Position numbers: made by a program
Shown: in pieces, positions 57,901-60,900 of the stretch
Numbering within the stretch: position 1 is the stretch's first letter
Layout of the letters: every line of letters starts with the position of its first letter
Assembly: GCF_013167455.1 (NCBI RefSeq)
Contig: NZ_CP038328.1
Direction: 5' to 3' (one strand)
Length of the DNA: 64,000 nt
Origin: Escherichia coli O157:H7
GTDB lineage: Bacteria; Pseudomonadota; Gammaproteobacteria; Enterobacterales; Enterobacteriaceae

Positions 57901-60900
57901 CAATGATTCTAAAACAATCTCTCGTTTTAGGGCTAACTGAGCATCTCTACGGGGTATTGGAGGATGAAGACTAATCTCTTCAGGTAAAAAATCCTTAAGA
58001 TTTACTAAAATAAAATCAAAACAAATAAGCCGTTCAAGGCTTAATGAAGAAGGATAAATAGCGACGAGCACTTTCGCCATTCGACATGCCACTTCTAAAC
58101 TTGAATTATAAATTCTAACCATTATCTCACCGTCCAAATTACTTCACCATCATTAACCAAATGATGGCATATTCCTTTTTTATCATTTGCTTCACATATT
58201 TTTGATAGTACTGAATGTGCAATTGGTGTCAGAACAGCCTGCTTCAAGACTGCATTACACCTAATAAATGCATAATTATGGTCTTCATAAAAGACGGGTT
58301 CAATTGAAGATGAAATGTAACATTTCAATGCTTTGAATACATCATCTTTAAATACTTCGCGGACAAAAACCTCAAGCGAAGATGCAAAATAAAAATCATT
58401 TCTACTATTATTAAAGTGTCGTCTGTATGGATCATCAAGCTCTAAGAAAGAACTATAAGTTTTATTTCCATGCTCTGAATAGGCTTGAAGCAGTGCATTA
58501 ACATATACAGACTCTTTTTTTGAATTGTATGTTGGAATTTCATTTGGAGGGATTCTCACGACATACAGCTCGTTAAAGTACTTAAAATAAAGGTGTGTAT
58601 TTGCAATATCATTTAAAATCAATGATAAGGGTAGAGAGTAAAAAATACTAAAATCAAAATCCTCAATATATTTTTTTATTTCATCATCTAATGGAATATC
58701 AATCTTTTTAGTTATTTTTTTGAAATTGCTGAATCCCATGAATCAAGGACTGCTTTTTTAAGCTCGTTTTTATTTTTCAATAAATTAGAAAATGTAGTAG
58801 ATAAATCATAGGGTGCCACAAAAAAGTACTTCTGAGGGATGGGATAATCACCATTCAGAGTAAAATAGATAAGTTTTCCAAACTCAACTACAACATCAGA
58901 GAACCCTAAACTTTTTTTGTACAGTTTGCATTGATAATTATCCCAAGAATAACCTTCTACGTTAGGATCCGATTTATATCCAACAACGTCTCTACCTTTA
59001 TCTCCAGCTCCTCCCAAACGTTCGCTCCACGGGTAATCATCTGATTTACAGACAATAAGCCAATCATGGACAAATACCTCCCATGTTCATCATCCCATGT
59101 CAATATTTCCGAAAGTGGTTGAGACACAAATTAACTCCTTTTTAGTCTTTCAAATATCAAATTACTGTACCAGTCCATCATAGACTTCCTTCCACTAAAA
59201 TATTGAGCATGGTTATAAGTCCCCCTAATAGAATTTTTATCTACATGAGCCAACTGGATTTCAATCCAAGCACTCTCAAAACCTTGCTCATGCAGGATTG
59301 TAGAAAGGGTATGACGAAAACCATGTCCAGTGACTTTTCCTCCATACCCAATACGCTTAATGGCTTGATTTATACTCGCTTCGCTCATTGGCCTATTCGG
59401 ATCGTTCCGCCCTGGAAAAACATAACGATAGTTCCCTGTCATGATCTTGAGTTCATTGAGTAAATCTACCGCTTGAGATGATAAGGGCACAAGATGTGGC
59501 CTACGCATTTTCATCCTTTCAGCAGGAATTTCCCAAATAGCGTTATCCAGATCAAATTCTTGCCATAATGCCGCGCGTAATTCGATGGTTCTCACACCCG
59601 TAATCATCAGTAATTTCGTGGCTATCTGGACAAGCTTACTCCCGGAGTAACCCTCTAAGGCACGTAGAAAATCAGGTATCTCATCAGCTTTTAGGAATGG
59701 GAAATGATTGGATTGGTGTACTTCGAGAGCGCTGGAGAGATCAGCCGCAGGATTGTACTCCGCCCTACCCGTTGCAATTGCGTAGCGAAACACTTCGGAG
59801 CAACGCTGCCGCACTTTGCGCATTTTCTCCAACGCACCACGTTTCTCAATTTTACGCAGAACGTTCAGCAGCTCTAGCGGTTTAATCTCTCCCACAGGCC
59901 TTGTTCCGACATAAGGAAAAATGTCGTTCTTAAACGCTTCCATGATGTCTGATGCATATCCCGCCGACCATTTAGCAGATTTAAGTTGATGCCACTCTCT
60001 GGCTATCTTTTCGAAGGCGTTCTCTGACTCTGTTTGCATAGCTAGCTTTTGCTCTTTTCGAACCTCACTAGGGTTCTTTCCTTCTGCCACAAGTTTTCGA
60101 GCTTCATCACGACGGGAACGAGCATCGGCAAGGGTGATCGTTGGGTAAACACCAAGCGAGATCATTTTGGGTTTGCCGGCATAGCGATAGCGGAACCGCC
60201 AACTCTTGCTTCCATTAGGTTCTATAAGTAATGACAACCCTAGCCCATCTCCAAATGTATAGGCTTTAGCTTCAGGCTTAGCGCGGCGAATCTGCATATC
60301 GTTTAAAGGCATGTGTATAGGAATCCAGACCGAACAGGAACATATACACAATCCTATACACATTCAGTACCGGATTCTACTGGATGGTTACGGACTACTA
60401 TGGACTTAAAAGAATAAAAAATGTTATAAATCAGAGATTTTATGGACTAATACGGACGTTTGAGGAAGTTGAGATGGTGCCGATAATAGGAGTCGAACCT
60501 ACGACCTTCGCATTACGAATTATAAGAATCCGCTTCTAATTCAAAGCATTACCCCATCAACACTGCGCTCACACGTCCCACCACATCAAAACATGTAAAG
60601 CCTTGCAAGCCATTGCGAGGCCTTATGTGTCTCAGTTTTGTCCCACCTTGTATTACGACTTGCATAGCCAATGAAGATAAACGTGACGACAAACGGCGCA
60701 GCAGTCTTCTTTTCTTTCACGACTTCTCCAGCATGCATACCTTTCTGCCATGACTGAAGTGAATGCCTGTTATGAGCGAGGATTGGCCCAGATGAATCGC
60801 CCTGGACTGTTGCGATCGTGAAGCCATAGACTGGGCCGCAAGCACGGGAGGTTACGATAAAGCGACAGTGCAGGATGTCATGTTAGGAGCGATAGAAAAA

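Follow-up and report, generated by a model that had tools for sequence, protein, structure and literature searches.

Remains of a type II Lamassu operon, with a decayed lmuA gene, in the P4-like prophage Sp2 of Escherichia coli O157:H7

A stretch of 64,000 nucleotides from the genome of Escherichia coli O157:H7 (RefSeq assembly GCF_013167455.1, contig NZ_CP038328.1), here called the window, carries two short open reading frames (ORFs), A and B, that meet at a run of seven adenines (A7) beside the integrase gene of a P4-like prophage. The two ORFs are very probably pieces of a single gene, lmuA, which would have encoded the effector of a type II ("short") Lamassu system and has since decayed. 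Such systems have reportedly also been described as ABC-three component (ABC-3C) systems, by Krishnan et al. in 2020. The locus thus represents a known defence family in decayed form, in a pathogen that has been sequenced very extensively, and part of the locus is already flagged as a pseudogene in the reference annotation; it is a case of ordinary gene decay and presents no new mechanism or feature. The coordinates of all features are collected in Table 1.

ORFs A and B and the lmuA gene

Restoring one A at each of two lesions, at codon 15 and in the A7 run, gives a repaired protein of 335 aa, somewhat longer than the figure of about 310 aa proposed for the fusion in a preliminary description of the sequence. 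This repaired product was used for the scans. It matches the PADLOC LmuA profile PDLC03852 (E = 8e-89) in one stretch, with residues 3-333 on profile positions 10-333 of 336, and this full-length match was obtained only when both lesions had been repaired. The Pfam C-terminal domain CTD6 of ABC-3C proteins (PF20282; E = 3.5e-29, residues 206-332, model positions 1-130 of 130) lies inside ORF B and is present in 17 of 17 homologues. A scan of the products of all five ORFs against NCBIfam returned no match.

The same relation is apparent at the nucleotide level. In a tblastn search with the intact LmuA of Xenorhabdus, residues 3-14, 16-138 and 138-335 aligned in three different frames, and the frame changes precisely at 59085/59084 and within the A run. 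Homology of ORF B to intact LmuA begins at position 58718 and not at the ATG of ORF B (58739), which has no Shine-Dalgarno sequence; the first eight codons of ORF B are an out-of-frame reading of the end of ORF A. Addition of one A to the run joins ORF A to ORF B in frame (...DSWDSAISKK-ITKKIDIPL...). At the homologous codons the intact Aeromonas orthologue reads TCA AAA AAA ATT (S-K-K-I), that is, an in-frame A8, and an orthologue from a metagenome reads AGT AAA AAA ATA; the E. coli sequence is TCA AAA AAA TAA. The E. coli state can therefore be described as a one-base contraction of an ancestral A8 (TCA AAA AAA ATA, S-K-K-I). A 71-base query spanning the run was identical in all 308 matching E. 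coli records.

Searched against 5.8 billion proteins, repaired LmuA gave 157 matches, and those of full length are single proteins. The homologues collected (115, from many phyla) are all single ORFs, nearly all of them of 324-381 aa; the closest, from Xenorhabdus, Aeromonas, Serratia and Yersinia, are 56-67% identical over 99-100% of the query and 334-337 aa long. The only match at 100% is a 197-aa E. coli B fragment. Complete and intact lmuA-lmuC-lmuB operons were found in three cases (Xenorhabdus, Aeromonas and a metagenome contig), while a fourth contig, with lmuA and the gene for middle component 2 (MC2), ends inside lmuB. In the intact operons LmuA measures 334-337 aa, MC2 145-152 aa and complete LmuB 604-609 aa, and the small gene overlaps of the Xenorhabdus operon are the same as those in the O157:H7 locus.

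The limits of both ORFs, their 28-nt overlap, the A7 run, the codons upstream of ORF A and the ATG GGA TGA TGA preceding them had all been recorded in the preliminary description, and all are present in the sequence as recorded there. Its proposal that A and B are the halves of a Lamassu effector split at the A run agrees with the colinearity of the A8 protein with both the LmuA profile and the 115 single-ORF homologues. Orthologues with separate A and B genes, which it had named as one finding that would speak against its reading, were not encountered.

Closer intact relatives were also sought outside the chromosomal sequences. None was found in phage records, where the best match has 31% identity, or in plasmids, where the best real match, from Yersinia, has 57%. 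One apparent plasmid copy, a single tblastn piece with 84% identity in pAR-0428-2 (NZ_CP044147.1, 4001-5010), was rejected as an artefact. This "plasmid" of the O157 strain AR-0428 is a linear contig of 46.9 kb that duplicates the chromosomal Sp1/Sp2 region; its lmuA has two extra A7-to-A6 deletions, through which the frame is regained by accident. It seems to be no plasmid but a contig that was misassembled or left unpolished.

The nuclease domain and the lesion at codon 15

In strain Sakai ORF A is an uninterrupted frame of 138 codons that starts from a GTG (MSQPLSEILTWDDEQWEVFVHDWL...). Alignment of the window with Sakai and with strain ECP19-598 showed GAA CAT GGG in the window against GAA CAA TGG G in Sakai; one A is missing at 59084 of the window, and this deletion is the cause of the disrupted N-terminus in the window. 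The codons that lie in frame upstream of the TTG of ORF A read T-WEVFVHDWLIVCKSDDYPWSERL and are preceded by ATG GGA TGA TGA (59098-59087). The upstream peptide had been assigned to the nuclease domain in the preliminary description, correctly as it turns out, and the ATG GGA TGA TGA had been taken for a destroyed natural start. The latter assignment has to be abandoned, since the GTG at 59127, with its AGGAG, is where the gene really starts, and the lesion is the deletion relative to Sakai; the ATG at 59098 is an out-of-frame reading of ...ACA TGG GAT GAT GAA... and no natural start.

A 61-base query centred on the site and bearing the Sakai allele has a perfect match in 286 records. The allele of the window has a 100% match in four of the records listed, and the band of at least 99% identity counts five, out of a total of about 301. 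The complete genomes that carry it are ECP19-598, 17B6-2, G5295 and FRIK1989. Over 25 kb these four show 100% identity to the window, from which that base alone separates many other strains; the 25 kb round the locus proved too conserved to separate strains in a test of whether the four form a clade. As a side effect, the deletion yields a perfect 8-nt direct repeat at 59077-59100 on the minus strand (ACATGGGA...ACATGGGA, with TGATGA between the copies). In Sakai the second copy reads ACAATGGGA, and there is no evidence that the repeat is of any importance.

The N-terminal domain had been described as an Mrr-type nuclease. An AlphaFold2 model built from 116 sequences has a mean pLDDT of 95, and of 97-98 across the A/B junction. 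When the model was compared with the Protein Data Bank (PDB) by Foldseek, the best matches were the solved LmuA chains (9nxx, 9ny1), followed by Cap4, MspJI and FokI. Residues G42, D43, G45, D47, Q66 and K68 are invariant in the 116 sequences and are kept in E. coli. They form the motif G-x-G-D43-x-G-x-D47 ... Q66-x-K68, which we take to be the D...(Q/E)xK signature of Mrr-type enzymes. The predicted domain thus has a restriction-endonuclease-like alpha/beta core bearing the D...(Q/E)xK residues. The profile test that had been proposed for this assignment, however, did not bear it out: Pfam Mrr_cat (PF04471) has no match to the repaired E. coli protein at E <= 10. Among the homologues it matches 2 of 17 at E <= 0.001 (best, 1.3e-5), and three more distant relatives in the databases carry a precomputed PF04471 match. 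The fold, the motif and these few homologues support the view that the domain is Mrr-like, of the PD-(D/E)xK type, without making it a demonstrable member of Mrr_cat. With the Mrr-like nucleases (PF04471; AF1548, 1y88; the nuclease domain of LlaBIII; the catalytic domains of MspJI and AspBHI) it shares the D...QxK motif; it differs from them in being fused to a Lamassu C-terminal domain (CTD) instead of a DNA-recognition domain, and in the silence of Mrr_cat. No significant match came from searches of PDB sequences with profiles built on 17 and on 116 homologues, those at E = 0.1-1 to MCM, gp6 and tubby being due to chance, so that the model is linked to solved LmuA through fold comparison only.

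Alternative explanations of the frame breaks

The preliminary description had offered decay and homopolymer miscalls side by side. Decay is supported by the additional nonsense codon and frameshift in lmuB (see below). That the frame breaks are instead errors of sequencing or assembly, the real lmuA being intact, seems very improbable, even though the A/B junction does lie inside a homopolymer, long-read contigs do err in this manner (as the extra A7-to-A6 deletions of pAR-0428-2 illustrate) and the 59084 deletion is rare. For the A7 run this explanation is excluded: the run is the same in 308 records, Sakai and EDL933 among them, with no A8 allele, and is therefore a mutation that the lineage has fixed, no miscall. 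For the 59084 deletion a real minor allele is a likelier explanation than an error, since it affects an AA dinucleotide, not a long run, and recurs in four separately deposited complete genomes.

Sequence errors apart, the A7 might be put to use by the cell, either as a programmed -1 ribosomal frameshift site (A AAA AAA, then TAA) or as a phase-variable tract, so that the locus would make a short A product together with full-length LmuA, or be a switchable gene. In the frame of ORF A the seven A's do constitute a classic X XXY YYZ slippery heptamer directly before the stop codon, a -1 slip would recreate the ancestral S-K-K-I-T exactly, and ORF B has no ribosome-binding site of its own. The comparison with other genomes nevertheless makes such a use hardly probable: all 115 homologues are contiguous ORFs, relatives carry an in-frame A8 or a broken run, and the length of the tract is invariant in 308 genomes. 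Moreover, the 96 nt downstream of the run fold no better than shuffled sequence (z = +0.55), giving no sign of a stimulatory structure, no strong Shine-Dalgarno-like element lies upstream of the A7, and with lmuB broken twice any full-length LmuA would be without its sensor. Fainter still is the prospect that A and B are genuine separate genes whose products, a free nuclease and free CTD6 subunits, assemble non-covalently. RefSeq does list ORF B as a stand-alone gene and ORF A as a separate coding sequence, and both ORFs are open in most strains; yet the ATG of ORF B lacks a ribosome-binding site, the homology of ORF B starts only at the A run, past codons that merely repeat ORF A out of frame, no homologue is split at this place, the AlphaFold2 model is one continuous, confidently folded chain over the junction, and a second frameshift in ORF A is tolerated in some strains. 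It is also conceivable, at a very low probability, that either slight -1 slippage, be it ribosomal or transcriptional, occurs at the A7 tract, with traces of full-length Mrr-type LmuA made in the absence of functional LmuB/LmuC, or the free 138-aa nuclease keeps some activity. Were either the case, the second frameshift in the sublineage of the window would reflect selection silencing an unregulated nuclease and not neutral drift.

Some observations weigh against a decayed lmuA as well. No intact copy above 67% identity was found among the 5.8 billion proteins, and a low-stringency search of 5426 E. coli genomes gave only the same 309 records that match the region as a whole (see below), all at 99% identity or more, so that an intact E. 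coli ancestor is something we infer and do not observe. All of the family-invariant residues are kept in the E. coli copy, which displays no decay at the protein level beyond the frame-breaking lesions. ORF A, finally, remains unbroken in most strains, and its ribosome-binding site is good; the isolated nuclease domain may keep a residual role. With these points taken into account, a single lmuA gene that has decayed remains by far the most probable reading of ORFs A and B.

The lmu operon and its prophage setting

The two genes that follow lmuA are lmuC and lmuB (Table 1). The product of lmuC, apparently intact, is named "ABC-three component system middle component 2" in RefSeq and is 59% identical to the MC2 of Xenorhabdus over 152 of 152 residues. 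The three pieces of lmuB match the PADLOC LmuB profile PDLC03863 colinearly (profile positions 3-199, 231-412 and 428-608 of 610). The fragmented annotation of lmuB is alike in every E. coli record listed; Sakai's record alone marks lmuB as a pseudogene, and the A7 split of lmuA is marked in none. The nonsense codon of lmuB lies at a T5/A7 boundary near 57040. A terminator-like hairpin downstream of lmuB is likely, judging from its sequence, to be the end of the operon.

Table 1. Features of the lmu locus and its surroundings in the window, listed in the direction of transcription
Feature	Position	Strand	Basis or remark
intS, tyrosine integrase of P4-like prophage Sp2	59131..60363	minus	longest ORF; Sakai and PGAP annotation; one boundary of the hotspot
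Shine-Dalgarno AGGAG of lmuA	59135..59139	minus	7 nt upstream of the GTG, within the 3' end of intS
lmuA pseudogene (predicted Mrr-like PD-(D/E)xK nuclease domain, then CTD6)	58122..59127	minus	repaired product 335 aa
Start GTG of lmuA	59127-59125	minus	Sakai coding sequence ECs_0290 annotated from this GTG
One-base deletion, lmuA codon 15	59083..59085	minus	window CAT vs CAAT (Gln15-Trp16) in Sakai and most O157:H7
ORF A	58712-59017	minus	TTG start at 59017; TAA stop at 58714-58712
ORF B, 3' two-thirds of lmuA (linker and CTD6)	58122-58739	minus	overlaps ORF A by 28 nt
A7 run	58715..58721	minus	exactly seven bases; the resulting frame shift brings in the TAA stop at 58714-58712
lmuC (ABC-3C middle component 2, MC2), apparently intact, 152 aa	57664..58122	minus	PADLOC LmuC PDLC03871, E = 2.9e-36
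lmuB pseudogene (SMC/Rad50-like ABC ATPase)	55852..57671	minus	three pieces: 57039-57671, 56418-57008, 55852-56418
Premature in-frame TAA in lmuB	57039..57041	minus	Leu in Xenorhabdus; a single tblastn alignment passes through the stop in the same frame
One-base frameshift in lmuB, approximate site (...KQ, then IHSSLESLYEYKD...)	56464..56468	minus	two tblastn alignments in different frames overlap; near 56466
Terminator-like hairpin, 13-bp stem	55792..55825	minus	consensus scan; 27 nt past the lmuB stop
P4 core genes delta/ogr, psu, sid	53864-55442	minus	Sakai and PGAP annotation

In its organization the locus resembles Lamassu-Mrr, the type II ("short") system with an Mrr-type LmuA, whose ability to defend E. 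coli has been demonstrated (Millman et al. 2022, bioRxiv 10.1101/2022.05.11.491447). The order lmuA, lmuC, lmuB is the same; LmuA combines an N-terminal restriction-endonuclease-like domain with an ABC-3C C-terminal domain (CTD6), LmuC is an MC2, LmuB is an SMC/Rad50-like ATPase of about 605 aa, and the genes occupy a prophage or satellite hotspot. The O157:H7 copy differs in consisting of pseudogenes, with lmuA split once or twice and lmuB twice, and in the failure of Mrr_cat, a profile that reaches no more than 2-3 of 17 relatives, to recognize its LmuA directly. With the systems of known structure, DdmABC/LmuABC of V. cholerae and LmuAB of Bacillus cellulasensis (9nxx, 9ny1, 9ny5, 9uxh, 9ux8), a shared mechanism is presumed. 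The nuclease of their LmuA proteins is of the Cap4 type and is joined to CTD7 or CTD12, in contrast to the Mrr-like nuclease with CTD6 of O157:H7; sequence identity to the latter is 7-12%, and no PDB chain was found to match it at the sequence level.

Cryo-electron microscopy of the V. cholerae and Bacillus systems has shown that an LmuB dimer, together with LmuC in type II, grips one LmuA monomer through its CTD, and that sensing of DNA ends and ATP free LmuA, with CTD tetramerisation and DNA cleavage as the outcome; both papers suggest that the mechanism extends to other effector types (bioRxiv 10.1101/2025.04.02.646746; 10.1101/2025.06.23.660979). By analogy, the intact ancestor of the O157:H7 system would have held an LmuA monomer by its CTD in a complex of LmuB dimer and LmuC. 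Upon sensing of DNA ends or of phage replication intermediates, LmuA would have been freed to form a CTD tetramer, whose N-terminal nuclease would have cut DNA and thereby aborted the infection. Its decay involved contraction of the A8 in the linker of lmuA to A7, by which the nuclease domain in ORF A and the CTD6 domain in ORF B were parted, and acquisition by lmuB of the premature TAA and of the one-base frameshift. These three lesions are fixed across the O157:H7 lineage, and the deletion at codon 15 is a further one, confined to a small set of genomes, that of the window among them. Uninterrupted frames of lmuA and lmuB, as expected of a functional Lamassu system, are lacking. The O157:H7 locus is thus probably non-functional, because the nuclease is separated from the CTD through which it would dock and oligomerise, and its sensor, LmuB, has suffered two truncations.

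These results have consequences for annotation. Pseudogene fragments would be the proper annotation for ORF B and for the pieces of lmuB. In the RefSeq/PGAP annotation ORF B figures as an intact "ABC-three component system protein", with ORF A as a separate coding sequence and the lmuB pieces as separate coding sequences too; programs that call defence systems by homology may for this reason report a Lamassu system in O157:H7. Lamassu is indeed among the systems listed for O157:H7 in a PADLOC survey (PMC12050774), perhaps on account of the present locus. A Lamassu call in O157:H7 is no proof of a working system, and the locus should be left out when phage susceptibility is predicted for biocontrol or therapy.

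For the 3.4 kb round ORFs A and B, 309 E. coli records match the window at 99-100% identity; they belong to 308 of the 5426 complete genomes. The strains listed for this match are nearly all labelled O157 or O157:H7 and include Sakai and EDL933. Sakai's record labels the region "prophage Sp2, P4-like phage". On the minus strand the order of genes is intS, ORF A, ORF B, the 152-aa gene, three ORFs (a single AAA-ATPase pseudogene, ECs_0293, in Sakai), delta/ogr, psu and sid. Sp2 carries the locus in its cargo hotspot, between integrase and delta/psu/sid, a location known for defence cargo (bioRxiv 10.64898/2026.02.27.708500). Defence pseudogenes have been claimed to be rare in P4 hotspots (same reference), and the lmu locus of O157:H7 constitutes a clear, lineage-wide counter-example. 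The guanine-plus-cytosine content of the Lamassu cargo (55852-59127) is 27-33%, below the 41-52% of the flanking P4-like core genes and integrase (53500-55500 and 59000-60500), which fits a hotspot cassette acquired separately. The annotated intS coding sequence (Sakai, PGAP) measures 1182 nt, and its start is therefore further in than that of the longest ORF, at about 60312. P4-like elements commonly adjoin a tRNA gene; looking for a tRNA gene or attachment site beside the integrase, ARAGORN found none in 48000-64000.

Slippage-prone tracts are abundant in the operon (55852-59127), which holds eight A or T runs of 7-8 bases: those of seven are at 58918, 58721, 58677, 58521, 57660, 57206 and 57040, and an A8 is at 56680. 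In the Sakai record Sp2 abuts prophage Sp1, and the ORFs past the integrase (60868-61233, 61275-62027, 62792-63616 and 63677-63994) correspond to the neighbouring Sp1 region. They include a fragment of an IS3-family transposase (ISEc48, partial, in the Sakai annotation), an AraC-family regulator, an ORF of 274 aa whose N-terminus looks GIY-YIG-like by eye, and a resolvase-like fragment at the edge of the window.

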